A stretch of 64,000 bases of DNA from an uncultured Candidatus Saccharibacteria bacterium (GCA_964429815.1 CAYSCM010000001.1:384001-448000); one strand, 5' to 3'. Shown: positions 19,428-61,071, counted from the first letter of the stretch. Numbers and translations: made by a program. Notes: a model not told the origin generated them from the letters alone.

Positions 19428-20107
19428 CTCGAAAAACTGTGAAATTCGAACTCAAAAAAATCAGAAGAAACACCCCAGATGACGAACTTCTTAGTGATCT
19501 GAAAACTACAGCAACAAAGTTAGGACAGCAATTTGTCACGAGGGCTCAGCAGGACCAATTTGGAAAATTTGATAGCTCGAACATGTCGAGGCGACTAGGG
19601 GGATGGGCAAAAGCTCATGAGCGTGCTGGTCTTAGGCTTGCACGTCATCAAAAGAGTCTGAAAGCTTCAGAAAACGAACTATTGCAAAATTTGGAAGAGG
19701 TTTGGACAAGGCTAGGACGACAACCGAATAGTCAGGATATGTTTGCTCCTATCTCACGCTTTGGCGTGAGTGCGTATAAACGCCACTTCGGCAGTTGGAT
19801 GAAAGCTCTCGAGAAGTTTGTTTCGATCGCAAATTTTGAGGGTGCTTTGACAAATGGATCGGATGAGGAGACTGTTGTTTCTGGGTCAAAGCGTAGGACA
19901 AAGCGAGAAGTCAATTGGAAGACGCGCTTTCTTGTAATGCGTCGGGATAATTTCAAATGCAAAAGTTGTGGACGGTCACCGGCTACGGACGCTGGAACTA
20001 TTCTCAATGTGGATCACATAAAGGCCTGGGCGAATGGGGGTGAAACTGTCCTAGACAATCTACAGACCCTATGTGCGGTCTGTAATCTGGGCAAAAGCAA
20101 TCTATAA
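19424..20107 (+). CDS. HNH endonuclease with N-terminal homing-endonuclease-associated repeats
   Basis: C-terminal HNH motif CKSCG...VDHIKAWANGGETVLDNLQTLCAVCNLGK. N-terminal repeats of the FGxxxxxxxRLGGWxxAxxxAGL type. Confidence 0.75.
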   Translation: MTRKTVKFELKKIRRNTPDDELLSDLKTTATKLGQQFVTRAQQDQFGKFDSSNMSRRLGGWAKAHERAGLRLARHQKSLKASENELLQNLEEVWTRLGRQPNSQDMFAPISRFGVSAYKRHFGSWMKALEKFVSIANFEGALTNGSDEETVVSGSKRRTKREVNWKTRFLVMRRDNFKCKSCGRSPATDAGTILNVDHIKAWANGGETVLDNLQTLCAVCNLGKSNL

Positions 20108-21630: not shown

Positions 21631-22704
21631 ATGAATCGACGCGTCTTTTTTGCAGTCTTGATTATTACCGTCGGATTTATCGTAGTTCTCGCACAGTATT
21701 CAACGGGCTATCACACGAAGTATCACAACAGTCTCGCCGCGTCACTCCTCGCTGCAGTAGGCGTTCAGGATACAGCCTCATCATCGGACAACGGCGCTCC
21801 TACAGCTTCAACGACCCCCACCGTTTTGGACGTCCTCCGACAGCTCCAAGAGCAGCAACAGTATCTGGCGGATCAGGTTGCAAGGTTAGGTGCGCGGATG
21901 GGAGCTGCTGATCTGAGAGCGATGTTCACACGCACCCTCAAGCATGGCGATTCAGGCAGCGATGTGAGCGAATTGCAAACCCTCCTCGCCCGAACCCTGG
22001 GGAGTGCTTCGAGTTCTGTCACAGGATTCTACGGCCCCTTGACGGATAAAGCCGTTCGGCATTTTCAATCCCAGGTAGGAATGAAGGAGACAGGAGTCTT
22101 TGATTCTGGGTTACGGGACAAGCTTTTAGAGTCGATACAGGAGCAAGACGCCCAGGATGCCGTGCTATCGGATGCTGTCCCAATTGACCTATCGTCCATT
22201 GCCGACCTAGAACTTAGCATGCAAGACCTGCAGGGCCGCATAGCTCAACTCTCCTCGCAATTATCGGATACCCAAACGGCGGTCGGAGATTTGACGGGAC
22301 AGATTTCCCAACTCGAATCTCGGGTCTCGAATTTGGAAGAAAGCAACACGGCGGCGGCTTTACAGGCGGCGAGCAGCCCGCCCACCACGAGCCCGCCCGC
22401 CACAGGTTCATCCGTACAAACGCTTTCTATCACGAATGTGCAGGCGACCAACATCAGCAAAAATTCCGCCACGATCACCTGGGTAACCAACAGTTCAGCA
22501 ACCAGTGAAGTCGACTACTCACAAAACTCCAGTATGCCGACAAACCAAACGCAAATCGCAAGCACTAGCGCGCTGGTGACAAGTCATAGCATAACGATTA
22601 CATCGCTCAATGCTGGCTCAACGTACTATTACAACGTCACCTCCAAGGGGAGCACAGGCACCGTTGTGCACAGTAGCAATGCGACATTTCAAACAGCGCA
22701 CTGA
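21631..22704 (+). CDS. Secreted/membrane-anchored protein with peptidoglycan-binding domain, coiled-coil and C-terminal Fn3-like domain
   Basis: N-terminal TM. PG_binding_1-like segment (LKHGDSGSDVSELQTLLARTL...GFYGPLTDKAVRHFQSQVGMKETGVFD). Fn3/PKD-like segment ITWVTNSSATSEVDY. Confidence 0.55.
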   Translation: MNRRVFFAVLIITVGFIVVLAQYSTGYHTKYHNSLAASLLAAVGVQDTASSSDNGAPTASTTPTVLDVLRQLQEQQQYLADQVARLGARMGAADLRAMFTRTLKHGDSGSDVSELQTLLARTLGSASSSVTGFYGPLTDKAVRHFQSQVGMKETGVFDSGLRDKLLESIQEQDAQDAVLSDAVPIDLSSIADLELSMQDLQGRIAQLSSQLSDTQTAVGDLTGQISQLESRVSNLEESNTAAALQAASSPPTTSPPATGSSVQTLSITNVQATNISKNSATITWVTNSSATSEVDYSQNSSMPTNQTQIASTSALVTSHSITITSLNAGSTYYYNVTSKGSTGTVVHSSNATFQTAH

Positions 22705-39602: not shown

Positions 39603-40130
39603 ATGGCCTTTTTAGAACCGAAGAAGGCGGTGAAGTTCTTTGGTGTTAACGAAGGCATGAAGGTTGCCGATTTTGGTGCGGGTATCGGCGCATTTGCGCT
39701 CGCGGCCGCCGAAGCGGTCGGGGGAAGCGGCATTGTCTTCGCCATCGACCTCCAGAAAGAACTCCTCGCAGGGCTCAAGAAAGAGGCTCGACGCAGAAAA
39801 CTCAACCTCGAAGTGCTCTGGGGCGACCTTGAGAAAGAAGGCGGAAGTCATATCAAAGATGATCTTCTCGACCTCGTCATTGCGACCAATATTCTTTTCC
39901 AGCTCTCCGAGCGACCGGCGTTTTTGCGCGAGGGGAAGCGTATTCTCCACCCCAAGGGCCGTCTCATTCTCATCGACTGGAGCGATTCTTTCGGAGGACT
40001 GGGGCCGCGGCCGGAGGATGTTGTCACCGATACCCACGCCCGCAAGCTCGCCGAGGAAGCGGGCTTCGTTTACGATAAAGATATTCCTGCGGGGGACCAC
40101 CACTGGGGAGCTATTTTTAGAAAACCATGA
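39603..40130 (+). CDS. Class I SAM-dependent methyltransferase
   Basis: Motif I VADFGAGIGAF and post-I acidic FAIDL. Confidence 0.65.
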   Translation: MAFLEPKKAVKFFGVNEGMKVADFGAGIGAFALAAAEAVGGSGIVFAIDLQKELLAGLKKEARRRKLNLEVLWGDLEKEGGSHIKDDLLDLVIATNILFQLSERPAFLREGKRILHPKGRLILIDWSDSFGGLGPRPEDVVTDTHARKLAEEAGFVYDKDIPAGDHHWGAIFRKP

Positions 40131-40256
40131 ATCCCGTAGTAGAATTTTTGCTTGCGCGAAGCGCGATACGAAACCTCAAACCATGAGCGGCACGATCATC
40201 AGCTTCTCGTTACGAAATGCTATTTTTAGTTTATCTAGCCGAAATCTCACCACAGG

Positions 40257-41552
40257 ATGAAGACCTTTCAAACCGCCATTTTGCTTATTTTTGGGGCGCT
40301 CGCGCTCATCGGGGTGCTTGTCTTTGCGACCGTGAGCAACCAGAGCTCCGGCGGTATCGGAGCGGTTGCCGTTTGGGGGACGCTCCCGAAGGATTCCGTC
40401 GACTCGCTCCTCGCGCAAATAGAGACAAACCGTCATGACTTCGACCAGGTGCGCTACACTTACATCGACCCGGCGCTCTATGAGCAAAAGCTTCTTGAGG
40501 GGTTTGCCTCCGGCACAGGCCCCGATCTTTTCCTCGTACCGCAGGAGTCCCTTCTTGCACAAACGTCCCATATCGCTCCGATAGGTTATTCAACACTCTC
40601 GCAACGGGCGTTCAAGGACCGGTTCGTCCAGGAAGGGGAGCTCTACCTCAAGGACTCCGGCGCCCTGGCGCTTCCTCTTACGATCGACCCGCTAGTTCTC
40701 TATTGGAATCGGGACATGCTGGCGAATGGAGGCATCGCCAAACCGCCAAGCTTTTGGGATGAGCTCGTGACGCTCGCGCCGAAGCTCTCCGTGCGCGACA
40801 GCAAGGGGACCGTAACGCAATCGGCTATTGCACTTGGCGAGTACCGCAATATCACCAACGCAAAAGCCATTCTCTCCGCTCTTTTCATGCAGGCGGGGGA
40901 TTCTATCGTTTCTCGTGATGCGGACGGCAACCCCTACGCGTCGCTCGCGGCGGAAAATTCCTCGCTTACCTCCGCGGGACCCTCGGCGATTCGCTTCTAT
41001 ACGCAGTTCGCGAACCCCATCAACACCATCTATTCCTGGAACCGCGCGCTTCCCGAATCGCAAAAAGCGTTTTTGGCAGGGAGTCTGGCGTTTTATGTGG
41101 GGTTCGCGAGCGAAGCGGCAGGACTCCGCGCCCAAAATCCCAACCTAAACTTTGATGTCGCTCCATTGCCGCAAACGCGCGACATAAAAAATAAGCTCAC
41201 TTACGGCGCGATGCAGGCCATTTCGGTCCCCAAGACGACGCACAACCTCTCCGGCGCCACAGCGGTCGCGCTCGAGCTAGTGTCGGACGCCAACCTCGCA
41301 TATCTCGCCGACAAGCTCGGACTTCCGCCAGTGTCCCGCGCAGATCTTTCCTCACAGCCCCCCAGTGCCGCTCAGCAAGTGTTTTATGCGAGTGCGCTCA
41401 TAGCACGTGGATGGCTCGATCCGGCTCCGGAAAAAACGAATACTATCTTCCAGGATATGATCGAGGGGGTGACGAGCGGGAAGTTTGAAATTTCCGACGC
41501 ACTCTCTCGTGCATCCCTTGCGCTCGATGAGCTTTTACGAGGTAATCAATAG
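40257..41552 (+). CDS. Extracellular solute-binding protein (SBP family 1-like), membrane-anchored
   Basis: N-terminal TM/signal anchor, then a periplasmic-binding-protein-like pattern. Its stop abuts the start of the first pilin-like gene (tagtATG). Confidence 0.6.
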   Translation: MKTFQTAILLIFGALALIGVLVFATVSNQSSGGIGAVAVWGTLPKDSVDSLLAQIETNRHDFDQVRYTYIDPALYEQKLLEGFASGTGPDLFLVPQESLLAQTSHIAPIGYSTLSQRAFKDRFVQEGELYLKDSGALALPLTIDPLVLYWNRDMLANGGIAKPPSFWDELVTLAPKLSVRDSKGTVTQSAIALGEYRNITNAKAILSALFMQAGDSIVSRDADGNPYASLAAENSSLTSAGPSAIRFYTQFANPINTIYSWNRALPESQKAFLAGSLAFYVGFASEAAGLRAQNPNLNFDVAPLPQTRDIKNKLTYGAMQAISVPKTTHNLSGATAVALELVSDANLAYLADKLGLPPVSRADLSSQPPSAAQQVFYASALIARGWLDPAPEKTNTIFQDMIEGVTSGKFEISDALSRASLALDELLRGNQ

Positions 41553-41553
41553 T

Positions 41554-41964
41554 ATGTTTCGCAAAAACCGTATTGCCTTATCCGCTCTTGCACTACTTTT
41601 AGCACCGGCCCTTACACTTGCGCAGCAAGGCAGTTTTTCGGGAAATGGCGTTCAATTTTCATTCCGAAACCCCCTTGGTCCAAATGTGAATGATCTCGGC
41701 ACCTTCCTTAAGCTCCTCCTTAATTTTGTGACTGAGCTAGCGATCCCCATAATTGTCCTCATGCTCATCTACACCGGCTTTAAATTCGTCGCGGCACAGG
41801 GGAATTCAGACAAACTCGCGGAAGCGCGGCGCATACTCTTGTGGACTCTCATCGGCGCGGGCATTATTCTCGGGGCCAACGCGATACTCCTTGCCATTCA
41901 AGGCACGGTGACCCAAATACGGGGGGCAACGGGGCTTGTCGATATCTTCTCGCACCTCACGTAG
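41554..41964 (+). CDS. TrbC/VirB2-like pilin-family protein (paralog 1)
   Basis: Signal peptide MFRKNRIALSALALLLAPALTLA. TM1 (IPIIVLMLIYTGFKFV), loop GNSDKLAEARRIL, TM2 (LWTLIGAGIILGANAILLAI). Confidence 0.55.
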   Translation: MFRKNRIALSALALLLAPALTLAQQGSFSGNGVQFSFRNPLGPNVNDLGTFLKLLLNFVTELAIPIIVLMLIYTGFKFVAAQGNSDKLAEARRILLWTLIGAGIILGANAILLAIQGTVTQIRGATGLVDIFSHLT

Positions 41965-41967
41965 CCC

Positions 41968-42306
41968 ATGAAGCGACCACTTCGAACGCTTGTCCTCACA
42001 CTGCCACTCCTCGCGCCTTCCGTAGCGCTCGCGGCGGCGCGGCCGCAAAATTTCGCCGACTTCGTCCACCACCTCACGAGGCTCCTTAACCTTACGATCC
42101 CCATCGCATTCGCTATCGCACTTCTTGCGTTCTTCTGGGGGCTAGTGAAATTCATATACCTCTCCTCCGAGAGCGATTCGGCCCGTGAAGATGCCAAAAA
42201 CATCATGCTCTACGGAGTGCTCGCGCTTTTCGTCATGCTCTCGGTGTGGGGCTTCGTGCGGATTCTCCAGGAGACTATCTTTGGTACCTCGGGCATTCTT
42301 CCGTAG
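41968..42306 (+). CDS. TrbC/VirB2-like pilin-family protein (paralog 2)
   Basis: Signal peptide, then TM1 IPIAFAIALLAFFWGLVKFIY, loop SESDSAREDAKNIM, TM2 LYGVLALFVMLSVWGFVRIL. Confidence 0.55.
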   Translation: MKRPLRTLVLTLPLLAPSVALAAARPQNFADFVHHLTRLLNLTIPIAFAIALLAFFWGLVKFIYLSSESDSAREDAKNIMLYGVLALFVMLSVWGFVRILQETIFGTSGILP

Positions 42307-42405
42307 AGAGCTTGTCCACATTGACCCTTTTACGCTCCGAGAGCGAGGGCGTACTATAAGCTCGTACAACAATTAGCAAACCTTAGCCCATAAATCGACA
42401 TTTTC

Positions 42406-42759
42406 ATGCGTAAATACGCTTTACTCGCAACCGCCTATCTTCTCCCCGTCGTTGTATTCGCGCAGGGGAGCGGCGTTGAAGGGCTTCTCAACAAGCTCTC
42501 CCGCTGGATAAACATCGCGACCCCGATAGTTTTTGCGCTTGCACTCCTAGCGTTTTTCTGGGGCCTCGCGGTCTATGTTTTTAACACCGGTGATGAAGAA
42601 AAGCGCAAGCAGGGCAAGGACATCATGATCTGGGGCGTCATCGCGCTTTTCGTCATGGTCTCGGTCTTCGGCATCGTGCGCATTATTCGCGAGACTTTCG
42701 GCATTAGCGCCAACGAAACCGCTCATATCCCGACCGTTCAAGGGACGAACGCTCAATAG
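42406..42759 (+). CDS. TrbC/VirB2-like pilin-family protein (paralog 3)
   Basis: Signal peptide MRKYALLATAYLLPVVVFAQG. TM1 PIVFALALLAFFWGLAVYVF, loop GDEEKRKQGKDIM, TM2 IWGVIALFVMVSVFGIVRII. Confidence 0.55.
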   Translation: MRKYALLATAYLLPVVVFAQGSGVEGLLNKLSRWINIATPIVFALALLAFFWGLAVYVFNTGDEEKRKQGKDIMIWGVIALFVMVSVFGIVRIIRETFGISANETAHIPTVQGTNAQ

Positions 42760-42768
42760 CGTTGGCCA

Positions 42769-43032
42769 ATGACCGCGGCCACCACTTTCGTCAGGGCGAT
42801 AAACGACTACATCATCAACCCTATCATCGGGCTCCTCTTTGCTGCGGCCATGGTCCTTTTTATCTGGGGCGGCGCGCAAATGATTTTCTACCCTGGCACC
42901 GAAGATAAGCGCGAGGACGGCAAGCGTCACCTCTTTTGGGGCATCATCGGGATGTTCATCATGGTCTCGGTCTACGGACTCCTCAATCTCATCACGAGCA
43001 CATTCGGCCTCCCGCACGTCGTCAGCCACTAA
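42769..43032 (+). CDS. TrbC/VirB2-like pilin-family protein (paralog 4, no obvious cleavable leader)
   Basis: TM1 IIGLLFAAAMVLFIWGGAQMIF, loop GTEDKREDGKRHLF, TM2 WGIIGMFIMVSVYGLLNLI. Confidence 0.5.
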   Translation: MTAATTFVRAINDYIINPIIGLLFAAAMVLFIWGGAQMIFYPGTEDKREDGKRHLFWGIIGMFIMVSVYGLLNLITSTFGLPHVVSH

Positions 43033-43080
43033 AAGAAAACGGGCCGCACTTGCGTGCGACCCGTTGGTCGTAAAGAACAG

Positions 43081-44109
43081 TTAGAGCTTGTTGTACCAAT
43101 ACTTGAGTGGAACCGGTTCACCCACGATCGAGCGGAACCGAATGCACTTAGTGGGCTTCATTCCTTCGTTGAAGAAGCCCTGATACACCTTGATGGTACC
43201 GTCGTGGAAGTATGCTGCGGCGACTATCTTCAAAATGCCCGGATTCTCCGTCCGGTACATCAAGTTGTAGCCGTCAGGAATGGGCACGCAGCGTGACCAC
43301 TCGGTCGGTACCAGGAAGGTTGAACCTTCAGCCGTAAAGGCAGGGTGGACACGTGGTTGGACCCGCGTTGGTGCCGCCTTGGCCTCCTGGAAGTAGTGGG
43401 GGAACATCTTCGGTGCGGTGTAGATCGCAATTGCGATTGCGAGCAGTGCCGCGAATCCGCCGGCGAAATAGTGACCGACTTCCTGCTTCGTCTTTCCCTT
43501 GCGCGACCCGAGGATGACCACCAACGCAACGGCCGCCACGAATGCGTAGTAAAACGCGAGGTAGGGCTTGAAGTTGTTGATCCACCAGAATTTAAGCTCG
43601 GGGTCGCCCTTCCAGTAGGCAAAAAAGTAGAGGATCGCTGGGATGAAGATCCCCATGAAGGCGATCCATACCATTGTGCCACCCGTGAGGTTGCCCTTAA
43701 TGAACTTGCCGATCTTCGGCAGGGTCCAAAGAAGGATGAACGCAACAAACAGGATGATGCCCGCTTGCATCAGGAAGTCGACGAGTGGCTCACCGGTGAG
43801 GGTGAGTAGGTCGAGCTCCTCCATAGTGTTGTACGTCCAGAGCGAAAGCACGGGGTAGTAGGCGTAGACGAGCAGGCCCACGATCGTCGCAAAGATGATC
43901 GCGAGGATTACGATGCGACGCCGTTGCTTTTTCGGCGCAGTGGTTGTGGTTTGGGTCGTCGTGGTCTGCTGAGCCTGCTGCGATTGTGCGGGCGGTTGAG
44001 CGGAAGCTTGCGCTTGCCCACCCTTGACGGTAGCGATGGTGCCCGAGGCGACCGCCCCGGTCATTTTCATTGCCGCCGTGCTCGCTGAGTAGCGTTGTAC
44101 GGCCATCAC
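43081..44109 (-). CDS. Polytopic membrane protein co-transcribed with the SPFH protein (possible NfeD-like partner)
   Basis: 342 aa. Gln/Thr-rich N-terminus, then at least 5 TM helices, and a C-terminal soluble beta-rich domain. Overlaps the SPFH gene by 4 nt. Confidence 0.4.
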   Translation of the reverse strand: MMAVQRYSASTAAMKMTGAVASGTIATVKGGQAQASAQPPAQSQQAQQTTTTQTTTTAPKKQRRRIVILAIIFATIVGLLVYAYYPVLSLWTYNTMEELDLLTLTGEPLVDFLMQAGIILFVAFILLWTLPKIGKFIKGNLTGGTMVWIAFMGIFIPAILYFFAYWKGDPELKFWWINNFKPYLAFYYAFVAAVALVVILGSRKGKTKQEVGHYFAGGFAALLAIAIAIYTAPKMFPHYFQEAKAAPTRVQPRVHPAFTAEGSTFLVPTEWSRCVPIPDGYNLMYRTENPGILKIVAAAYFHDGTIKVYQGFFNEGMKPTKCIRFRSIVGEPVPLKYWYNKL

Positions 44110-45299
44110 TTATCTCCTTCTTTTGGCTTGAGACCTTGGGGGACGGCTTTGATCACCGCCCCGAGCGTGGCCGCGGGGGATGCGAGACCGTCGGCGCCGA
44201 CGGCGATGAAGGTATCGACTTCCTTAGCCACTTGGACTGCAGTGTCGCGTGCGAAGATGAGTTCGAGCGCACGCGGCTTGTCGCCGCCTTGCGCCGCGAG
44301 CTTTTCGATCGCTTGTGCGTCTCCTTCCGCCTCGTACGAGGTAGCATCTCCCTTCGCCCGACCAGCAATACGGGTGGCCTCACCCTCGGCAAGCGCCTGA
44401 GCGGGCTTCTGTATCGACGTATTGAGCGCGTGAGAGAAATTGAAGAGCTTGATGTTGGCGGTATCGACTTCGACGCCGCCCTTGCCAAGTTTCTCTTCAA
44501 TGAGTGTTCGCAGGTCTACGTTGATAGTCGACGTGCCCCGAAGGGCCTCGGCTGCCGTCCTCGACGGAAGTGTTTCGCTCAGCCCCGTCACGATTGTGTC
44601 TTCAGCTTGCTTCATGGCGGCCGCAAGGTCGCCATTGTACAGGACGAAGAACTCTCGCAAATTTCCTTTTTCGGGTCTGATCTTAAGGATCGCAGCGACC
44701 TCCGCAGTGATGCGGCGGTCGAGCGGATCCTGACCATCCTTGCCGGCGAACGTGATACGCACCGGCGGGTAGTACCCCTCAGCGACGGTGTCTTTGTCGC
44801 CACGATCAACGAGTTCCGGCTCGCTCGGGATCTCTTTTTGCAGCAGCTCGAGATCGGTGATCCGGAGCATGCTGAGAAAGAGGGGAGCATAAACGGGCCC
44901 GTTGGGAAGTTCGCAAACGACCCAGCCGAAGATGCTGAGCACTGCTCCTTCGTTGATATCTACCTCCTCGAAGCTCTTCCACGTGTAGAGTGTGAAGAGC
45001 ACAAGAAGGATCGGGATCACGGGAATGTTGAGCTGGCCGAGCTTGATTGAACTTGCCCCGAGGTTGGAGTAAACGACCAGCAAGGCAAAACTAAGAAGGA
45101 GGATGTTGGCGAAGAGTGCAGCAAGGTGCCAGACGAACCAATTTCTGGTCAAGCGCCCCATCACCGAAGCCTTGTGCCGTTCCTCGTCGGAACCGCCTGA
45201 GGCGGGACCTGCAGGGGGCGTTGGTGGGGTGGGAGGGGCTGGAGGTGTTGGAGTCCCAGCGCCGTTTGGCGGCTGGGTTGGCGTTGCTGTCTGTTGCAT
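44106..45299 (-). CDS. SPFH/Band-7 (stomatin/prohibitin-like) domain protein
   Basis: Pro-rich N-terminus, then a TM, then a band-7-like core and a long Ala/Glu-rich coiled-coil tail. Confidence 0.55.
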   Translation of the reverse strand: MQQTATPTQPPNGAGTPTPPAPPTPPTPPAGPASGGSDEERHKASVMGRLTRNWFVWHLAALFANILLLSFALLVVYSNLGASSIKLGQLNIPVIPILLVLFTLYTWKSFEEVDINEGAVLSIFGWVVCELPNGPVYAPLFLSMLRITDLELLQKEIPSEPELVDRGDKDTVAEGYYPPVRITFAGKDGQDPLDRRITAEVAAILKIRPEKGNLREFFVLYNGDLAAAMKQAEDTIVTGLSETLPSRTAAEALRGTSTINVDLRTLIEEKLGKGGVEVDTANIKLFNFSHALNTSIQKPAQALAEGEATRIAGRAKGDATSYEAEGDAQAIEKLAAQGGDKPRALELIFARDTAVQVAKEVDTFIAVGADGLASPAATLGAVIKAVPQGLKPKEGDK

Positions 45300-45434
45300 A
45301 ATGAACCTCTATGCAGTTGTGTGGGAACGGGATACTGCCTGGAATTCAAGCATAAAATTTCAAAAAAGTCAAGGATTGCGCGGCGGAATGGCAAAAAAGC
45401 CCTCAAAATGGGCTTTTTTGCGTAGAGCACAATG

Positions 45435-45516
45435 TGGGCGAGAGAGGACTTGAACCTCCACCCCTTGCGGGACGCGGTCCTAAGCCGCGCGCGTATACCA
45501 ATTCCGCCACTCGCCC
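45435..45516 (-). tRNA. tRNA-Leu (anticodon TAG), class II
   Basis: Reverse complement reads gggcgag-tg-gcggaattggtatacgc-g-cgcgg-ctTAGga-ccgcg, long variable arm, ggagg-ttcaagt-cctct-ctcgccc-a. Confidence 0.8.
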
Positions 45517-45703
45517 GTATGTGTATTCTACATCCTTGCCGTCACGAATAATTTGATTGCCGTCGAAGAGGACTCGGTCCTTACAGGACCAGTACCCCGA
45601 TTGGATAGTTTGCTTCGGCTCCTCGCAAACTATACTCAATCGGGCTTCGAGTCCTGCACGCAAACGCACCGCGTTTGCTCGGGCGGCACTCGCTGCGCTC
45701 GTG

Positions 45704-45776
45704 TCCGCCCAGCAGGACTCGAACCTGCGACCAATTGCTTAAGAGGCAACTGCTCTACCAACTGAGCTATGGGCGG
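45704..45776 (-). tRNA. tRNA-Lys (anticodon CTT)
   Basis: Reverse complement reads ccgccca-ta-gctcagttggtagagc-a-gttgc-ctCTTaa-gcaat-tggtc-gcagg-ttcgagt-cctgc-tgggcgg-a. Close to bacterial tRNA-Lys consensus. Confidence 0.85.
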
Positions 45777-45844
45777 AAAAACAGAAACGATAGTAGCACG
45801 CTCTTCCGTATGAATGAAGCCCCGCATTGCTGCGGGGCTTTAGC

Positions 45845-46187
45845 CTAGGCGGCCATGAGGTTTTCGATGAGGACGACACCATCCCGGTAGCGTGGGTGTG
45901 TGCTTTCGAGTCCCCAGGCATGTACCGGCGTCGAGTTCTGGTTGTCGCTCTTGAGGACGATTTTCTTCCCGGATTCGTCGGTGAGCGTAAGATGCCACTG
46001 GTCGACGATCCAGAACTTGATAAAGTTGATCTTCTGTTCCTTCGCGAACCGAACAAAGGCCTTGGGATCGCGCGAGGTGAATTCGAGGCGATTCTCGTGA
46101 ACGGCTCGATCCTCGTATTCGCCTTCCCAGCGCTGGAAGATAACGACATGCTTCAGCTCCGGTGCACCCACTTCCATATTCGGCATG
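45845..46187 (-). CDS. Hypothetical protein
   Basis: Start moved to MPNMEVGAPEL (113 aa). No motif recognised. Confidence 0.4.
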
Positions 46188-46263
46188 TTAGCCTCCTGTT
46201 TCTTGTTCCTGCCCGACTCTAGCAGGAAGCATTCTTTTTTCAATAGTGCCGGGGGTGGGGGTC

Positions 46264-46339
46264 GGCACATCCGGCTTCCAAAATGCCGAACACGGCGCCT
46301 GCCCGTCCGAAGCTTTAGCGAAGGAGGGAGGCCGCTTCG
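46264..46339. repeat. 76-bp inverted repeat, left copy (partner 47543-47619)
   Basis: cggcacatccggcttccaaaatgccgaacacggcgcctgcccgtccgaagctttagcgaaggagggaggccgcttcg is the reverse complement of 47543-47619, with one mismatch. Confidence 0.85.
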
Positions 46340-46470
46340 TTGACAATATAAAATTTTTCTTTGGCGGACTAATTCGAGAATGCGCGGAGCGTATACAATA
46401 TTGTTCTTTGAAAAAATAAAGAGCGCCCCATCGCTGGAGCGCTCTGTGTCGAGTTGAACGGCGCGAGCCG

Positions 46471-46810
46471 CTACTTGTCGGACTTTTCGGCCCCTTGCAG
46501 CTTGCAGTCGGCGTAGGCCCAGACGTAGCGGGTGCAGGTGAATGCGCCGGGTTTCTGGAGATATGCCGAGATGAACTTCGGCTCCTTGGTCTCGTCCTCC
46601 TTGCCGCCGCAGTCGAGCTTCATCACCACTTTGGTATTGGTGGCATCGTAGGATTTCGCGGTGCAGATCGCGTCACGAGCGACGACGGTATTGCTGACGA
46701 TAGCCGCGTGGACGCCCCACTGAATGCCACCGCTGACGGCGATGACGATGCCGAAGCCGAACAGCTGCTTCCACGTCATGACGAAGTTGCCGACGAATCG
46801 GTTCCTCATG
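46471..46810 (-). CDS. Hypothetical signal-anchored Cys-containing small protein (island cargo)
   Basis: Start at MRNRFVGNFVMTWKQLFGFGIVIAVSG (TM/signal). 4 Cys in the mature part. Its own terminator lies at about 46426-46455. Confidence 0.45.
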
Positions 46811-47310
46811 ACACCGCTCCCTGTGCTTGGTGGTTGAAGGTGATGATCGGGCAGACCTTCTGCTTGGCCGCCACGATGTATTGCCACACGACCTGCCAGA
46901 AGCCGGGACCCGTCGGCGCCGGAGCGGCGACCTTGGGCGGTTCCTTCTTCTTTTCAGGCTTGGGCGCGGGAGAAGGTTGCCGCCCCCACTCCTTCAGCCG
47001 TCGGAACAGCGCCTTCAGACCGATGATAACGCCGACGACGATTGCGAGTGCGCCGACGACATACGCATAGCCGGTGCCGCCCCAGAAGTAGATGGGTAGC
47101 GCCGTCAGTGCGGCGACACCCGAGCCGTACACCACTGCGTTGAGCAGCAGCACGAGCGGGCACCAGACCAGCATAACGCGCAGGAAATGGCACAAGTTTG
47201 TGCCGTCCCGATAGTGCCACGAGTCGTCGCCGCGGTCCTTGAACTCGTCCCAGACCGTCAAAGACCAGAAGAACCAACGGACGTACCACTGGCGTTTGTC
47301 CAACTCCATG
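46806..47310 (-). CDS. Hypothetical membrane protein (island cargo)
   Basis: Start at MELDKRQWY. 2-3 TM helices. Lys/Pro-rich tail (PSPAPKPEKKKEPPKVAAPAPTGP). Confidence 0.45.
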
Positions 47311-47542
47311 ATGTTTCTCCCCTTGAAAATTGGCCAAAACAAGCCAAGGATTGTGTACCACTTCCAAGCATCAGTGTCAAGTTGTGGCGAACTGTCGCAC
47401 CGAAAGAGTGTTTAGTAGCTAATCGTTCTGTATGCCAAAAAGTTTTCTTTTTCCTGACATAGATTCAGAGCGGGCTTCGCCCGCACCGAGTGAGAATGGT
47501 TTGCACCGATGTTTTTCTCCGGGCTCTTTTGCGGTTTTCGAG

Positions 47543-47619
47543 CGAAGCGGCCTCCCTCCTTCGCTAAAGCTTCGGACGGGCAGGCGCCGCGTTCGGCATT
47601 TTGGAAGCCGGATGTGCCG
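47543..47619. repeat. 76-bp inverted repeat, right copy
   Basis: Reverse complement of 46264-46339. Confidence 0.85.
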
Positions 47620-47809
47620 CGCCGCCGCCCTCGCCACCGACGGCGCGGCTGGTTCGAGTTATTTCTAGTATTCTGCACTATAGCAGGCAACTGCTTGCCT
47701 GCGTGTGGGCATCGAAGGCCGCAGTGATGTTTCGTTAGGAGACGAAACCGCGGGGCGGGGTCGCGACCGAGGCGAGCGGCGGCGAGCTCTGATTTGTAGT
47801 TTCAAACTT

Positions 47810-47894
47810 GGTGCCGGGGGTGGGGGTCGAACCCACATCTCTTGCGAGGCACGATTTTAAGTCGTGTGCGTATACCAATTCCGCCACCCCGGCG
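47810..47894 (-). tRNA. tRNA-Leu (anticodon TAA), class II, CCA encoded
   Basis: Reverse complement reads gccgggg-tg-gcggaattggtatacgc-a-cacga-ctTAAaa-tcgtg, long variable arm, gtggg-ttcgacc-cccac-ccccggc-a-cca. Confidence 0.85.
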
Positions 47895-47899
47895 TTCGT

Positions 47900-48295
47900 C
47901 TATTGTAAAACCTTTTCGAGTTTACTCGGAAGCGCGGGGTATGCAAACGGATAGTTTTGAAGCTCAGCGATCGAGACAAATGCATACTCCTGGTGCTCGT
48001 GGCTAAGTTTTAGTTGCGATAGGTCTTTGATTTGAACATCAAACACGACCGCGTACGTAAGCCCTGATGTACTAATGTCGACATCCACAATTTTATTCAT
48101 CCCGCCCACTTCGAGATCGGTCTCTTCTCGCGTCTCTCTCTGTAGTGCTTCAAAACATCCCTTATCGCGATGCTCCATGCGGCCGCCGGGCAGCATCCAA
48201 CCGTTTTTATTTTTCAAAATCAAAATTTTACCGTCCCCACTTCGGATGATTGTCTGCTGGCTGATGAAATGAGGTTTGTGATCGGTTTGATTCAT
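47900..48295 (-). CDS. NUDIX hydrolase
   Basis: Nudix box GGRMEHRDKGCFEALQRETREETD. Start moved to MNQTDHK to avoid overlap with tRNA-Cys. Confidence 0.7.
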   Translation of the reverse strand: MNQTDHKPHFISQQTIIRSGDGKILILKNKNGWMLPGGRMEHRDKGCFEALQRETREETDLEVGGMNKIVDVDISTSGLTYAVVFDVQIKDLSQLKLSHEHQEYAFVSIAELQNYPFAYPALPSKLEKVLQ

Positions 48296-48299
48296 GTAG

Positions 48300-48374
48300 T
48301 GGAGGCCCAGACCGGAATCGAACCGGCGCATCGCGGTTTTGCAGACCGCTGTGTTACCACTTCACCACTGGGCC
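48300..48374 (-). tRNA. tRNA-Cys (anticodon GCA), CCA encoded
   Basis: Reverse complement reads ggcccag-tg-gtgaagtggtaacac-a-gcggt-ctGCAaa-accgc-gatgc-gccgg-ttcgatt-ccggt-ctgggcc-t-cca. Confidence 0.8.
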
Positions 48375-56273: not shown

Positions 56274-56357
56274 GCGTCGGTGGCGGAGTGGTCAATCGCA
56301 CCTGACTGTAAATCAGGCGGCTTTATGCCTACGGGGGTTCGAATCCCTCCCGGCGCA
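56274..56357 (+). tRNA. tRNA-Tyr (anticodon GTA), class II
   Basis: gcgtcgg-tg-gcgg-agtggtcaa-tcgc-a-cctga-ctGTAaa-tcagg, variable arm cggctttatgcctac, ggggg-ttcgaat-ccctc-ccggcgc-a. One U-G pair in the acceptor. Confidence 0.75.
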
Positions 56358-56489
56358 CTACGTGACAAGTACTCTAAATAAGAGTACTGTTAAGAGCAGA
56401 GTACCTGTAGCGCGACGCTGCAGGTGCGTTCCTAGGGCAAGCGTGATGCTTGTCTAACAATACGGCGCGATGCCGTAAGGAGTAGTACC

Positions 56490-56915
56490 ATGAGACGTTC
56501 GAATGTTGACGCAATTTATGCGGAAAATCCCTTTCTGTCGAAAGTGATCGCGAGAGTCAAGGTTCCAGATGCGCAGGTGAAGCGCTGGAACGAAGATTTC
56601 CTCGGCAGCACACCCGACACCTACCCTGATTCAGGAACTGAAAAGATTTACCTGATCGACGGACAAGGCAACAAGATCGTACGCGTGGGAAGTCTTTCTG
56701 ATCGAATCACTGGATTCTTTGGACTCCACCAGAACAGCGAAACGGTCGGACAGGCCTTAGCGCGTATCGGCGACAAAACTCGCCAGGTGCAGTACGCGGT
56801 CGGAGAGTGGAACGGGAGGGTCATTTTGTGGAAACTCCCGAACGGCTACAACAACGCAGCCGATTGGTTGAGGTCGCGGATTGCGGAAGCTCGGGCTGAG
56901 CTGAAAGCATCCTGA
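56490..56915 (+). CDS. Hypothetical protein
   Basis: 141-aa ORF followed by two terminator hairpins (about 56938-56966 and 57025-57055). Confidence 0.4.
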   Translation: MRRSNVDAIYAENPFLSKVIARVKVPDAQVKRWNEDFLGSTPDTYPDSGTEKIYLIDGQGNKIVRVGSLSDRITGFFGLHQNSETVGQALARIGDKTRQVQYAVGEWNGRVILWKLPNGYNNAADWLRSRIAEARAELKAS

Positions 56916-57073
56916 TCAACCTACCAGAATAATTGTTTGACCCCAGGCAATCCGGCCTGGGGTTTTATGTTTTCTGATCTAAAACCATTCCGATATCGTT
57001 CCATACGGCGCACCAAAACAAAAACCCACAGCGAAAGGCTGTGGGTTTTTGTTTTGGCTCTATACTTAACTCA

Positions 57074-58366
57074 ATGAGCAAAAAGCTCGCCTTCTTTATA
57101 TTTATTGTGTCTGTCGTTGCCGTGTTGGTCGCGACAGCAGTGCAGACATCCGCGGCTCCCATCGTGCCGCAGGTATCCGCCCAGCCCGGCTCTGTTGAAG
57201 GCGGTCCGCTTCGCGCCTGCGACCTCCTCACCCTCTACAACAACATCCTCCGGTTCGGGATCTATGCTGCGACGGTTATTGCGACCCTCATGCTTACCTA
57301 CGCGGGCTTCCTCTACATCACCTCCTCGGCCAAGATAGGAAACATTGAAAAGGCACACGGGATTTTTACCAATGTCATCATCGGCTTCATCATTGTCCTC
57401 GTCGCGTGGCTTATCGTCTCGACTCTTTTGCGCGTGTTTACCGCGCAATCGAACTACAATCCGTTCGCCGCGATACAGTGCAATGTTGAAACACCGACGA
57501 CGACGCGCAACGTCACCCCTGCCGGATTTGAAACACAGTCCTATTCTGACTATCCCACCGGTCTTCCCGCCGGAGAGGTTCCGGTGTGCCTCACCGCCGA
57601 TAGCGACAGCAATTGCACCACCTACGCTTCCATCGGGCTGCAAGACTCGACCCTTCTTGAGTGCCAGGATCCCGGAGCAACCGGCGAGCAGTACTGTTGC
57701 TCGATGACTAACGCCGACGGCTCATGTAAGCTAGCGGTCACGGTCGGGCCAAATGGCCAACCTTCCTACAACAACGATGTGGGTGAGAATCTCTACGTAA
57801 ATCCGAATGTGGGGCTCACTGGCGTTGCCCCGACAGAAGGTATTTGCTCCCCGGATGCGCTCCAGAGCGTGTGGGGAGATAACGCCGCAACCGCTGGGTG
57901 CATATGCGCTTCAGAAAGTGGTGGGGGGCTCTACAACGGCATTACGGGCCCGCGCACGGACGTCATGCTCATCGATCAACAGCAGCCAGATGGTTTTTAT
58001 CCAGGTTTTTCGGCATGCCCATTCCAGCTCAACGTCACGAGCCTTCCGGCACAATATGGTGGATGTGGCGCGTATACCTGCAATACCAACACACAGGCGT
58101 GTATGATAAACGGTGTATTAACGCCACCCAATCCCACGAAATGCGATACAAATGTATCAGCCTATGAGCAAACCCTTGGATACAAGGAAGGGGCTCTGAG
58201 TCGAAACGGAGGCTATTGCCATGTGATAACCAATCAACCCGCCTTTAACTCCTGCGTGCAAAACCTTCTTACACCCGGGGGATGTGCCAAGGGAGCTCAA
58301 TATCTTCTTGCCAATGGCGGCTGGGCGCACTGGAGTACGAGCGCTAAAAAATGCCGAGCTATATGA
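57074..58366 (+). CDS. Pilin-like (TrbC/VirB2-type N-terminal module) protein with large Cys-rich extracellular C-terminal domain
   Basis: Signal peptide, then a two-TM module LLTLYNNILRFGIYAATVIATLMLTYAGFLYITSSAKIGNIEKAHGIFTNVIIGFIIVLVAWLIVSTLL. This matches the modules of 58920-59813 and the four small paralogs at 41.5-43 kb. The C-terminal ~300 aa contain more than 20 Cys. Confidence 0.55.
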   Translation: MSKKLAFFIFIVSVVAVLVATAVQTSAAPIVPQVSAQPGSVEGGPLRACDLLTLYNNILRFGIYAATVIATLMLTYAGFLYITSSAKIGNIEKAHGIFTNVIIGFIIVLVAWLIVSTLLRVFTAQSNYNPFAAIQCNVETPTTTRNVTPAGFETQSYSDYPTGLPAGEVPVCLTADSDSNCTTYASIGLQDSTLLECQDPGATGEQYCCSMTNADGSCKLAVTVGPNGQPSYNNDVGENLYVNPNVGLTGVAPTEGICSPDALQSVWGDNAATAGCICASESGGGLYNGITGPRTDVMLIDQQQPDGFYPGFSACPFQLNVTSLPAQYGGCGAYTCNTNTQACMINGVLTPPNPTKCDTNVSAYEQTLGYKEGALSRNGGYCHVITNQPAFNSCVQNLLTPGGCAKGAQYLLANGGWAHWSTSAKKCRAI

Positions 58367-58923
58367 GAAAACTATTACTCACCATCGTGCTCCTTCTTGT
58401 AGCGGTTGTCATCGGTGGTGGAATCTACGTATTCCTCGTTTCGCGCAGCACCCAGCCGGCAAGCGTACAAAACGAAACGGGAACTTCGCCTTTTGGCAGC
58501 GGCGCAGGAGCTATTCCTTCTGGCGGCAGCGGGCAAGGAAATACCACGTCCAGCCAAACCTCGGAGCAATTCATCGTCCTGGGAGCTGACGGTAGCATGA
58601 TTTCGGTAGCTGACTTCCGCTCAGAGCCGGGAGTGCAAGAGCTTTCTGACGGGAGCTATCGGCTCGGTCCATTCACCGGAAGCTCGACGTATCAAATTCT
58701 CTACTATGCCGCCGACAAGAGCTTCACGGTGACTCTTCTCGAGGAGCCACTGGGAGCCACGAGAGAGAGCGCAGAGCAGTACCTCATGAATGCTCTCCAA
58801 ATCGGCAAACCCCAGATGTGCAGATTGCGCTATGGTGTCTACGTGCCCATCAAGATCAGCCAGTTCTATGCGGCCACCAATCTCGGATTTAGTTTCTGTC
58901 CTCGCGCGATAAAACTACCATGA
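58363..58923 (+). CDS. Hypothetical membrane-anchored protein
   Basis: Start at MRKLLLTIVLLLVAVVIGGGIYVF (TM), then a Ser/Gly-rich linker and a small globular domain. Confidence 0.4.
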   Translation: MRKLLLTIVLLLVAVVIGGGIYVFLVSRSTQPASVQNETGTSPFGSGAGAIPSGGSGQGNTTSSQTSEQFIVLGADGSMISVADFRSEPGVQELSDGSYRLGPFTGSSTYQILYYAADKSFTVTLLEEPLGATRESAEQYLMNALQIGKPQMCRLRYGVYVPIKISQFYAATNLGFSFCPRAIKLP

Positions 58924-59813
58924 TACGCACCGCCGCAATCGCGCTCATTCTCTTGTGCGTCTTTGTCGTGACACCCTTTGCGCACGCGCAGAGTTTTGCT
59001 GGTCCCATAGTCCCCGATTGTGGTGGTGGCCCGTGCCAAGCCTGCCACCTCGTAAAGCTTGCGGACAACCTCCTGCGTTTCGGCATCTATCTGGCGACCG
59101 TCATTGCGACTCTAATCCTTGTCTATGCGGGTATTCTCTACATCACCTCAGCGAGCAACCCCAGCAATATTTCGAAAGCACACAGTTTATTTGGGAATGT
59201 CATTCTCGGTTTTATCATCATACTCATCGCTTGGATCGTCGTTGCTACGCTGCTGCGGGTTTTTCTCGGACAGGGCAAAGCTCTTCCGTGGGAGCAGCTC
59301 ACCTGTAACGTCACGGCGAATCCTGGCCCGACACCCTCGACCACGCCTCCAGGACTAACCGTAGCACCCCTTGCAGCTCCGCCAGGGGAAGGACAGCTCA
59401 CTGATCCGCAGGCGCGCCTTTCAATTGCCGCCTATAATGAGTCTCATCCTGACGCGCAGGTGTTAACTTGTGGTGATACAGCTTCCTGCCCGGCAATTCG
59501 CGACCGCGTCCTGTACGGCGGTATTGATAACGGCCTTCTCCAAAATGTCCTTGATACTACCTCTGCGGCCAATAGGGGGAACACCATTGTTACCTCCGCG
59601 GCAAATGAGCGTACTTCAGCTTCCAATCACCCAAGCGGCAATGCAATTGATATATACGGCACAAGCGCTTTCAATGCCTATGTTCAAAGCTTTCCGGCGG
59701 TCCCAGGTCTTTCAAACACATACCAGGTCGGGAATTATCGATACTGGTGGGAGCCATCAGGCACGGCTAATTCAACAGGGGACCATTGGCATATCTCAAA
59801 GACCGGACGTTGA
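58920..59813 (+). CDS. Pilin-like (TrbC/VirB2-type module) protein fused to a LAS/M15-family zinc peptidase-like domain
   Basis: N-terminal signal peptide plus two-TM module (LRFGIYLATVIATLILVYAGILYITSASNPSNISKAHSLFGNVILGFIIILIAWIVVATLL). C-terminal SNHPSGNAIDIYG ... GDHWHISK resembles the SxHxxGxAxD ... HxH zinc-binding signature of D-Ala-D-Ala peptidase-like (LAS) cell-wall hydrolases. Confidence 0.5.
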   Translation: MIRTAAIALILLCVFVVTPFAHAQSFAGPIVPDCGGGPCQACHLVKLADNLLRFGIYLATVIATLILVYAGILYITSASNPSNISKAHSLFGNVILGFIIILIAWIVVATLLRVFLGQGKALPWEQLTCNVTANPGPTPSTTPPGLTVAPLAAPPGEGQLTDPQARLSIAAYNESHPDAQVLTCGDTASCPAIRDRVLYGGIDNGLLQNVLDTTSAANRGNTIVTSAANERTSASNHPSGNAIDIYGTSAFNAYVQSFPAVPGLSNTYQVGNYRYWWEPSGTANSTGDHWHISKTGR

Positions 59814-59873
59814 CGCCTTCCTCGCGGTCTTGTATATTCTCCTTCACAGGGCAAGGCCCTTATTTTAATTTTC

Positions 59874-60032
59874 ATGTCACAAGATAGGCTTCTCAGGCTC
59901 AATTGCAGCGTCTGTAAGAACACCAATTATTGGACGAGCAAAAATAAAAAACTTGTCGAGCGCAAACTCGAGTTTAAAAAGTATTGCAAATTCTGCCGCA
60001 AGCAGACTATCCACAAGGAGGCAAAGAAATAA
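59874..60032 (+). CDS. rpmG: 50S ribosomal protein L33
   Basis: 52 aa MSQDRLLRLNCSVCKNTNYWTSKNKKLVERKLEFKKYCKFCRKQTIHKEAKK with the L33 zinc-ribbon pattern (CxxC...CxxC, TxKNKK..ErLELKKY). Terminator at 60037-60066. Confidence 0.8.
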   Translation: MSQDRLLRLNCSVCKNTNYWTSKNKKLVERKLEFKKYCKFCRKQTIHKEAKK

Positions 60033-60098
60033 TCAAAACACCGCCCCCAGGGGCGGTGTTTTGATTTGAGGAGGGGAGTAAGGTAATTTAGATACGTT

Positions 60099-60170
60099 GG
60101 GCCTATAGTTTAATTGGTAAAACAGCGGTCTCCAAAACCGCCATTCCCCGTTCAAGTCGGGGTGGGCCCG
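60099..60170 (+). tRNA. tRNA-Trp (anticodon CCA)
   Basis: gggccta-ta-gtttaattggtaaaac-a-gcggt-ctCCAaa-accgc-catt-ccccg-ttcaagt-cgggg-tgggccc-g. Confidence 0.8.
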
Positions 60171-61071
60171 CCTGGAATTTATACGAGAGCGCTTTCTTCG
60201 CGGACGAAAACCAACGTATGCCGTTGTCACGTTTCCACCACGTCATCTGTCGACGCGAGAACTGCCAAATGGCAGCCTCAAGCCGCGTGAGCATCTCCTC
60301 TTTGGATAGTTTCCCCTCAAGGTAGTCGGCGAGATAGCGATACTCAAGTCCAAGCTCACGCATGCGCTTCAAGCGGAGCCCCCTTCGTCGTAGGCGCTTC
60401 GCCTCAGCGACCATTCCCTCTCGTATACGGGCATGAAGACGTTTCGCAATGTTGGCTCGGAGTTGCGAGTCTTTTGGCCGTATCCCGATTGTTACTGCCT
60501 CGTAGCGTGGTTTCGGGAGCTCTGCGGTTTTTTCTGCTGCGAGTGCGACCTCGATGGCGCGAATGAGACGCACGGGATTTTGCTTGTCGATAGTGAGATA
60601 GCGACGCGGGGCGAGCTCTTTAAGGAGTGTTTTGAGTTCTGGGAGCGTCTTCTTTCTTAAATGATGTCTGAGAGCGGCGTCTGGCCGGACATTGGCAAGC
60701 TTTGTCTTACCGAGTGCGGCATCGATGTAAAACGCCGAGCCGCCGACCATGATGGGCAGTTTACCGCGCCGCGCTATATCCTCGATAGCGGCGCGGGCAG
60801 CGATAGCGAAATCATACGCAGTGAAGACCCGCTTAGGGTCAGCGATGTCGAGGAGGTGATGGCGGACACCTTTCATCTCACGTTTCGTAATTTTGCCCGT
60901 GCCAATCGTGAGACCGCGATATACCTGTCGAGAATCCGCGGAAATTATCTCGCCGTTAAGTTTTTTTGCCAGTCGCACACCCAGGCCGCTTTTCCCAGAG
61001 GCTGTGGGGCCGACTATAACGAGCACTTTTGTTCTTACGGACCTGTTTTTGTATACTTCTTTCGTACTCAT
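60103..61071 (-). CDS. miaA: tRNA dimethylallyltransferase
   Basis: P-loop VGPTASGKSGLG, DSRQVYRGLTIGTGK. The last ~22 codons are antisense to tRNA-Trp, so the annotated C-terminus may be an ORF-extension artefact. Confidence 0.8.
   Translation of the reverse strand: MSTKEVYKNRSVRTKVLVIVGPTASGKSGLGVRLAKKLNGEIISADSRQVYRGLTIGTGKITKREMKGVRHHLLDIADPKRVFTAYDFAIAARAAIEDIARRGKLPIMVGGSAFYIDAALGKTKLANVRPDAALRHHLRKKTLPELKTLLKELAPRRYLTIDKQNPVRLIRAIEVALAAEKTAELPKPRYEAVTIGIRPKDSQLRANIAKRLHARIREGMVAEAKRLRRRGLRLKRMRELGLEYRYLADYLEGKLSKEEMLTRLEAAIWQFSRRQMTWWKRDNGIRWFSSAKKALSYKFQAGPPRLERGMAVLETAVLPIKL

Follow-up and report, generated by a model that had tools for sequence, protein, structure and literature searches.

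Tandem arrays of genes coding for VirB2-like proteins, related to the pilins of type IV secretion systems (T4SS), have already been published for Patescibacteria, and PF18895 (T4SS_pilin) has a curated entry in Pfam. Quinonero-Coronel et al. (2025, PMC12102498) applied PF18895 and PF04956 (TrbC/VirB2) to 3,035 Patescibacteria genomes, finding VirB2-like genes in 1,948 VirB4-containing assemblies, with a pilin near virB4 in 1,135 of them, and 441 arrays (mean identity 25%) that hold 2-11 pilin genes each and are spread over 383 Patescibacteria assemblies; VirB4 was widespread, and located near dnaA in Paceibacteria. The pilin genes within the T4SS cluster of Ca. Southlakia epibionticum (SEML1_0006-0019 region) were essential (Wang et al. 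2023, PMC10633639; also PMC12857230), and a 2025 review considered the patescibacterial systems the only monoderm T4SSs having VirB2-like pilins (PMC12857230). In cultured Paceibacteria, T4SS pilins, including an adjacent pair, were among the top five highest-expressed signal-peptide genes (PMC10936435). Here, we describe an array of this kind in a 64-kb stretch of DNA (GCA_964429815.1 CAYSCM010000001.1:384001-448000), hereafter the window, whose coordinates are counted from its start. The array consists of four small paralogs, named P1-P4, placed 3′ of the gene of a solute-binding protein (SBP); "pilin" is used for them as a family name. We show that this association between the SBP and the pilin genes is a conserved operon in a whole clade of Paceibacteria, and no local accident.

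The closest relatives of the window lineage were Kaiserbacteria, Adlerbacteria and Paceibacterota metagenome-assembled genomes (MAGs), which places it in the Candidate Phyla Radiation (CPR), as had been proposed in a preliminary description made from the sequence alone. The list of open reading frames (ORFs) and the sequence itself revealed five co-directional genes, the SBP and the four consecutive small ORFs, all at the coordinates claimed beforehand (Table 1). The start codon of P1 (ATG at 41554) lies 1 nt after the SBP stop codon (TAG, 41550-41552), also in agreement with the preliminary description, and is preceded by GAGG 11 nt upstream. Starting P1 instead at the in-frame ATG of position 41527 would make it overlap the SBP gene, and gene callers picked different P1 starts on identical Logan contigs; the start at 41554 yields a canonical signal peptide that resembles those of P2 and P3. 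The following genes are separated by 3 nt (P1-P2), 99 nt (P2-P3) and 9 nt (P3-P4). Three Logan contigs encode a protein identical to P3.

The assignment of the four small proteins to the T4SS pilins was made by means of profile comparisons. All of them passed the PF18895 gathering threshold of 26.6 bits (P1, 30.7; P2, 35.1; P3, 46.6; P4, 40.7), with E-values of 3e-7 to 4e-12, and four such matches in a row far exceed chance. The PF04956 profile (threshold of 27.9 bits), which had been suggested as a check, was passed by P1 only (29.4 bits), P2 staying below the threshold (13.8 bits) and P3 and P4 giving no match. The two types were connected by a comparison between a P1-type profile (31 sequences) and a P2-P4-type profile (69 sequences), which hhalign aligned with a probability of 98.8% (E=7.8e-17), while the P1-type orthologues matched PF18895 in 31 of 31 cases and PF04956 in 22 of 31. 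Due to these Pfam matches, the hhalign link and the PF04956 matches of the orthologues, membership of the TrbC/VirB2 superfamily can be placed at the profile level, and the earlier reading of P1-P4 as TrbC/VirB2-like proteins, rather than class III leader pilins, is supported by sequence. The homologues listed all bear PF18895, one of them being named "pilin" by NCBI, and the family is very large, since a profile search of 1.84 billion cluster representatives (50% identity) retrieved 27,839 sequences with an E-value of 1e-3 or less, 7,809 of them at or below 1e-10. Identity to P3 was 39-40% for P2, 34% for P4 and 17-21% for P1.

P1-P3 read as proteins with a Sec-type AxA leader, after which a short charged loop links two hydrophobic helices, and the loop sequences quoted in the preliminary description were found in the proteins. 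The same description had attributed a Sec signal peptide to each of the four, which stood for P1-P3 but not for P4, whose ORF opens just 3 codons upstream of the ATG, so that the protein begins immediately before its first transmembrane helix and has no leader. The AF2 model of P3, built from 69 sequences, had a mean predicted local distance difference test (pLDDT) score of 79.9, with a core above 90, and presented a signal helix (residues 3-21) and a hairpin of helices 23-59 and 64-98 connected by a short charged loop. A leader, two hydrophobic helices and a short basic loop are also shared with the TrbC/VirB2 conjugative pilins of PF04956, such as RP4 TrbC and Agrobacterium VirB2. In contrast with these, the host is reported to be monoderm (PMC12857230), the genes lie outside a virB operon and occur as several differentiated paralogs, and there is no sign of cyclisation, acetylation or pilus formation in the window proteins. 

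Another small pilin-like protein with two transmembrane helices is Mbov_0395/MMCAP2_0565 of Mycoplasma integrative and conjugative elements (NCBIfam NF045849), with which P3 and P4 scored 34.2 and 31.8 bits, both under the cut-off of 40 bits, so that they are not members of that family. Moreover, the Mycoplasma protein is carried on a mobile element and the window array is in the core genome. The Mycoplasma proteins presumably belong to a monoderm MPF-FATA-type system, and the sub-threshold similarity hints that systems of this type may already have had pilin-like proteins.

Two other identities were considered for the small proteins. A type IV (class III leader) pilin was rejected in view of the Sec-type AxA leaders and the two transmembrane helices, no type IV pilin family being found among the Pfam matches listed for P1-P4. 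The preliminary description had also named holins or bacteriocin-immunity proteins as a possible match, and these or other unrelated small membrane proteins would share with P1-P4 the small size and the two transmembrane helices, and nothing else. All four passed PF18895, neither a holin nor an immunity family was present in their Pfam lists, and P3, the only one of the four scanned against PHROGs, had no match below E=0.07, the families touched having no known function; the neighbours are housekeeping genes, and the window scans revealed no phage or bacteriocin genes in this core-genome context. This identity was therefore rejected, and we give it almost no credence.

The gene preceding the array codes for a protein whose model was of high confidence (AF2 mean pLDDT of 92.1 and predicted TM-score of 0.87), with an N-terminal transmembrane helix at residues 2-25. 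The best Foldseek matches were oligosaccharide-binding SBPs of ATP-binding cassette (ABC) importers (E=1e-20 to 4e-22, 15-20% identity, TM-score of 0.65-0.83), including Tlet_1705, a cyclic maltosyl-maltose binder, the mannooligosaccharide binder CpMnBP1 and a cyclo/maltodextrin binder. The modelling thus showed a predicted CUT1-like oligosaccharide-binding ABC-SBP fold placed on a transmembrane anchor. Aromatic residues invariant across 58 SBP orthologues include W40, Y67, Y149, W167, F251, Y259, W261 and Y280, which would fit a conserved sugar site, and judging from the modelled fold the protein is very probably a glycan binder. The likeness to the CUT1 oligosaccharide SBPs (5ci5, 7bvt, 4r9g CpMnBP1, 2zyo, MalE) comprises the fold and PF13416. 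These are anchored by a lipid or free in the periplasm, whereas the window SBP has a transmembrane anchor. CUT1 SBP genes normally adjoin their two permease genes; in contrast, the relatives of the window SBP in 80 genomes had no adjoining permease genes and pilin genes came next.

The conservation of this arrangement was assessed by a survey in which the SBP served as query, each GTDB species was represented by a single genome, and loci of ~20 kb each were compared. This survey yielded 80 full-length SBP orthologues (34-44% identity) from Kaiserbacteria, Adlerbacteria, Nomurabacteria, Campbellbacteria and other Paceibacteria MAGs, and PF18895-like ORFs followed the SBP on the same strand in 77 of the 80 loci. 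Concerning the three apparent exceptions, two contigs stop just past the SBP, and in the third (L061) the gene after the SBP encodes a 413-aa protein carrying a TrbC-like domain of two transmembrane helices at its C-terminus, a pilin-domain protein that fell below the threshold used. The adjacency of the SBP and a pilin gene was kept in all 78 assessable species-level loci. The arrays contained 1-8 genes, with 3-7 and mostly 4-6 where the contig goes on, and the distance between the SBP stop and the first pilin start had a median of 3 nt, with many -4 overlaps. A methyltransferase gene was found directly 5′ of the SBP in 79 of the 80 related loci, the median distance between its stop and the SBP start being 6 nt (n=78) and that between GyrA and the methyltransferase being 170 nt. 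These gap statistics support the existence of a discrete (methyltransferase)-SBP-pilins module. In the window itself, the gap between the methyltransferase and the SBP is 126 nt long and contains a weak promoter-like match at 40116-40145. The methyltransferase may be part of the module and could, for instance, modify a cytoplasmic loop of the pilins.

The adjacency could also be explained if the SBP were simply the receptor of a carbohydrate ABC importer with permease and ATPase encoded elsewhere, the position of the SBP next to the pilins being inherited gene order, co-transcribed and functionally uncoupled. The canonical oligosaccharide-SBP fold and the invariant aromatics would be expected of such a receptor, the relatives are annotated as sugar or glycerol-3-phosphate SBPs, and an unrelated methyltransferase is packed equally tightly. 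Moreover, a wider block was syntenic in many relatives, with the order HisRS, LepB, Pth, S1, MBL, GyrA, methyltransferase, SBP, pilins, a variable region of ~3 kb, RbfA, IF2, and onward to ClpB. Because the neighbourhood is largely syntenic, the linkage could partly be inherited gene order, which weakens the adjacency argument. This argument was restored by three sets of observations. In three loci (L038, L039 and L043) the flanks differ, with RecG upstream and LysRS, GluRS and an M23 peptidase downstream, and the module is intact; a Zambryskibacteria contig lacks the methyltransferase, with the SBP and the pilins still together; and look-ups started from three pilins, instead of the SBP, all reached SBP-pilin operons. 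Thus, the pair outlasts both flank rearrangement and methyltransferase loss, which, together with the invariable adjacency and the tight spacing, stands against an uncoupled importer receptor. Similarly, no conserved permease-like multi-transmembrane family was found across the 80 related loci of ~20 kb, and this differs from the normal CUT1 arrangement. Taken together, we consider an ordinary importer receptor unlikely, without dismissing it. The preliminary description had noted the SBP next to the first paralog, and the link was undervalued in it.

The internal organization of the arrays was also conserved. Every array member was assigned to its best-matching window paralog, and among the complete arrays (n=64) a P1-type gene was the first in 62 and a P4-type gene the last in 56, the middle P2/P3-type genes varying in number. 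Since the end positions are conserved, the paralogs are old and non-equivalent, which disfavours the proposal that such arrays are simple variation cassettes, comparable to the VirB2 paralogs of Bartonella and Anaplasma, supplying interchangeable variants for host range or defence evasion. This idea, put forward in PMC12102498, would be in line with the low identity among the paralogs (17-40%), the variable copy number of the middle genes and the range of array sizes. Nevertheless, the end positions were orthologous among species whose SBPs share 35-45% identity, which indicates old, fixed and non-equivalent roles, and a variation cassette is very improbable in our judgement.

In 57 of 65 arrays the widest intra-array gap lies just before the last gene but one; its median length is 91 nt, the other gaps having a median of 5 nt, and it corresponds in the window to the 99-nt spacer between P2 and P3. 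The TATCCACA box (ATCCACA) was present in 19 of 53 spacers (0.2 expected). Boxes resembling –10 hexamers (TGGTATACT/TATAAT) were enriched in the same 53 spacers, with TATACT in 19 (2.9 expected), GGTATAC in 11 (0.1 expected) and TATAAT in 18 (6.7 expected). The start of TCCACA was commonly placed ~35 nt upstream of the start of the –10-like box; in the window spacer, TCCACA occurs at 42315-42320 and TACTATAAG at 42353-42361. Over the whole window, TCCACA had 28 matches against 19.7 expected, a count reached in 3 of 100 shuffles and thus marginal, and a scan with the generic sigma-70 consensus did not flag the window spacer. From these motifs we infer that the spacer would be an internal promoter driving P3 and P4 separately, and it may combine an activator site with this promoter. 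A separate promoter for P3 and P4 fits the highly expressed adjacent pair of T4SS pilins in cultured Paceibacteria (PMC10936435).

In the context of the published patescibacterial arrays (PMC12102498, PMC10633639), the window array shares the tandem PF18895/PF04956 genes (4 here versus 2-11), the low identity among copies, the chromosomal CPR location and the lack of a relaxase nearby. It differs from them in being located away from a virB4 cluster and fixed beside gyrA, in being always preceded by an SBP gene and usually by a methyltransferase gene, and in its conserved end subunits and internal spacer. The preliminary description had placed the expanded pilin-like family in poorly characterised CPR biology, but its novelty is not supported given the curated family and the arrays already published (PMC12102498, PMC10633639, PMC12857230). 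On the other hand, no mention of the SBP partner, the gyrA-adjacent site, the positional orthology or the spacer motif was found in the open-access literature; the main text of PMC12102498 contains none of the terms "solute", "SBP", "substrate-binding" and "gyrA", and its supplements contain no SBP term. Apparently, what is new is the clade-wide (methyltransferase)-SBP-pilin operon with its ordered subunits and internal spacer.

We hold with moderate confidence that the locus represents the form which the patescibacterial VirB2-like pilin array takes in Paceibacteria, a core-genome operon by gyrA organized as (methyltransferase)-SBP-P1-P2 / P3-P4. P1-P3 would be exported by the Sec pathway and cleaved by signal peptidase I, and P4 would be inserted leaderless. 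The mature helical hairpins would be stored in the membrane and then polymerised by a VirB4-driven T4SS of the Gram-positive type (MPF-FATA-like), encoded elsewhere, near dnaA in Paceibacteria (PMC12102498), and the resulting polymer would be a short pilus or conduit touching the host cell. P1-type and P4-type proteins might have fixed minor roles, as initiator or at the base or tip, P1 being a specialised subunit; the bulk subunits would come from P3 and P4, a pair with a promoter of its own. The co-expressed SBP would bind a cell-surface glycan, either recognising a sugar of the host envelope or capturing a released oligosaccharide, and this binding would be coupled to the pilus apparatus. 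Both the formation of a pilus and the role of the SBP are steps that we infer.

A more specific proposal is that the transmembrane-anchored SBP is an integral partner of a VirB2-like filament or conduit, acting as a glycan-recognition or glycan-capture module instead of a transporter part and being co-translated with ordered, differentiated pilins. We put this forward tentatively, as a reading more doubtful than probable; such an SBP-filament module would possibly be tuned by the methyltransferase and the TATCCACA-box promoter. In its more radical form, the SBP and the proteins with two transmembrane helices would constitute a T4SS-independent surface organelle for host attachment or nutrient uptake.

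Several observations weigh against a T4SS-assembled pilus. Pfam scans of 39 window ORFs, which include every long window ORF judged to be a real gene, revealed no VirB4, VirB11, VirD4, VirB6, relaxase or ABC permease, extending what had been noted beforehand for the permease, VirB4, VirB11 and VirD4. VirB4, VirB6, VirD4 and ABC permeases were likewise absent from ~10 kb to the right and ~7 kb to the left of the window, and no VirB4, VirB6 or VirD4 was found among the ORFs of at least 420 aa in ~85 related loci, in which the large Walker-A proteins were RecG and tRNA synthetases. With none of these components linked, the connection to a T4SS is drawn from the family name and the literature. According to the supplements of PMC12102498, VirB4 is present in some Kaiserbacteria/Adlerbacteria and absent in others. 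Structural comparisons gave no significant connection to a solved pilin, since a search of PDB with a 42-sequence pilin profile returned noise only (GPCRs, cytochrome oxidase) and Foldseek retrieved nothing at E<=0.001 from PDB with the P3 model, the best pilin match being the Aeropyrum conjugation pilus (8dfu; E=1.4, TM-score of 0.65, normalised to target length). A two-helix hairpin is, however, too simple a fold to discriminate in structure comparison. Finally, the literature cited contains no visualised pilus of PF18895 proteins.

These observations would also be accommodated if the proteins with two transmembrane helices remained in the membrane as an oligomeric channel or scaffold together with the SBP, forming a T4SS-independent device for uptake or attachment. 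The strict linkage to the SBP and the lack of linkage to VirB4 in the clade, the leaderless P4, the fixed, stoichiometry-like gene order and the missing significant structural match to solved pilins would all be compatible with such a device. It is opposed by the profile homology to TrbC/VirB2 and by the presence of the same family inside T4SS clusters of other Patescibacteria, where it is co-essential (PMC10633639, PMC12102498), and the match of P1 to DctQ (E=0.034) is at noise level. We regard a purely membrane-resident device as quite improbable and retain the VirB2-like pilin array as the preferred reading.

Table 1. Coordinates of the SBP-pilin operon, its adjacent elements and the pilin-domain fusion genes in the window
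Feature	Coordinates	Strand	Family match or basis
Methyltransferase, small cytoplasmic class I S-adenosylmethionine-dependent, 175 aa	39603..40130	+	Pfam Methyltransf_31/11/25
SBP, membrane-anchored, 431 aa	40257..41552	+	PF13416, 65.7 bits; N-terminal transmembrane helix, lipobox Cys absent
P1, 136 aa, signal peptide, two transmembrane helices, loop GNSDKLAEARR	41554..41964	+	PF18895, PF04956
P2, 112 aa, signal peptide, two transmembrane helices	41968..42306	+	PF18895
Intra-array spacer, 99 nt	42307..42405	+	Candidate internal promoter/regulatory region
P3, 117 aa, top family match of the four, candidate major subunit	42406..42759	+	PF18895
P4, 87 aa, leaderless, two transmembrane helices only	42769..43032	+	PF18895
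GC-rich hairpin, 12-bp stem, between the array and a convergent gene	43038..43065		Terminator-like scan, flagged on the minus strand
Pilin-domain fusion 1: signal peptide, TrbC-like domain with two transmembrane helices, ~300-aa Cys-rich C-terminal domain	57041..58366	+	PF18895, 31.0 bits, residues 64-129
190-aa protein, N-terminal transmembrane segment	58351..58923	+	Overlaps both fusion genes; no family match
Pilin-domain fusion 2: signal peptide, TrbC-like domain with two transmembrane helices, ~175-aa orphan C-terminal domain	58920..59813	+	PF18895, 24.1 bits, under the 26.6 cut-off

The preliminary description had reported two more family members at 57-60 kb, with enzymatic or Cys-rich C-terminal domains. 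A profile of the four paralogs searched against the six-frame ORFs of the window retrieved exactly these two extra members (Table 1). Fusion 1 passed PF18895, whereas fusion 2 stayed below its cut-off but was recovered by the window profile at E=5e-4, and its sole homologue in 5.8 billion proteins was a PF18895 relative covering the pilin domain alone. No confirmation was obtained for an enzymatic C-terminal domain, neither of the two domains having a Pfam (E<=5) or PHROGs match, and that of fusion 2 having no match in a PDB search with phmmer; no relevant NCBIfam family was found for the whole fusion proteins or the 190-aa protein encoded between them. Because their ORFs overlap, these three genes probably form one operon. 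A four-gene operon was delimited at 56490-59813, between tRNA-Tyr and tRNA-Trp, in DNA of slightly lower GC (window 56274-60172). By eye only, the stretch SNHPSGNAID...DHWH (SxHxxGxAxD...HWH) of fusion 2 recalls LAS/M15 peptidases, and the Cys-rich domain of fusion 1 contains "CASESGGG". The fusions may be VirB1-like wall hydrolases tethered by the pilin domain.

The same architecture also occurs within arrays, since in several loci (L063, L066, L069, L072, L080 and others) the first 2-3 members following the SBP are pilin-domain fusions of 250-500 aa. Some of the proteins in the sequence library (P0244-P0252, P0288, P0349 and P0377; 200-600 aa) hold 2-7 tandem pilin domains, which could be fusions or read-through gene calls.

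Regarding the surroundings of the array, the hairpin following P4 likely marks the end of the operon. The region between the array and RbfA/IF2 (43081-48374) is lineage-specific and contains an SPFH/Band 7 protein, four tRNA genes, a NUDIX protein and a 341-aa multi-transmembrane protein with a Q/T-rich N-terminus. For the latter, jackhmmer found no relatives in the other loci, so that it does not count among the conserved genes of the module, and it had no PHROGs match. At the matching position, several other species carry unrelated multi-transmembrane proteins convergent to the array.

The remaining Pfam calls in the window include RNR, MurJ, LepA, a class I tRNA synthetase, TsaD, TrxB, FtsZ, FtsA and GyrA, as well as the methyltransferase, RbfA, IF2, a NifS-like protein and ClpB, to which the gene calls of matching contigs add HisRS, signal peptidase I, Pth, an S1-domain protein and an MBL-fold protein; thirteen tRNA genes are present. 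The flanks are also composed of housekeeping genes, with ParB, RelA/SpoT, TopA, DprA and SerRS to the right, and MscL, MsrB, an RluA-like protein and others to the left. The lowest GC of the window (0.457) was found at 18000-20107, where an HNH endonuclease with homing-endonuclease repeats (19424-20107) is accompanied by two ORFs without family match, and this segment is probably a small mobile insertion. A protein encoded at 21631-22704 combines a PG_binding_1 peptidoglycan-binding domain with fn3-like domains, a class highly expressed in archaea-parasitising Paceibacteria (PMC10936435).

If the linkage between the SBP and the pilins were mere synteny, the locus would be one more member of a very large described family. 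For CPR bacteria, only a handful of gene sets have proved essential to an epibiotic life, T4SS pilin arrays being one of them, and an operon joining an SBP to an ordered array provides a testable handle on it in the largest CPR class, through the sugar that is bound, the contact between the SBP and the pilins, and the role of the last two genes as possible major subunits. Moreover, the conserved order argues that the paralogs are specialised parts and not interchangeable variants, which alters the reading of such arrays.

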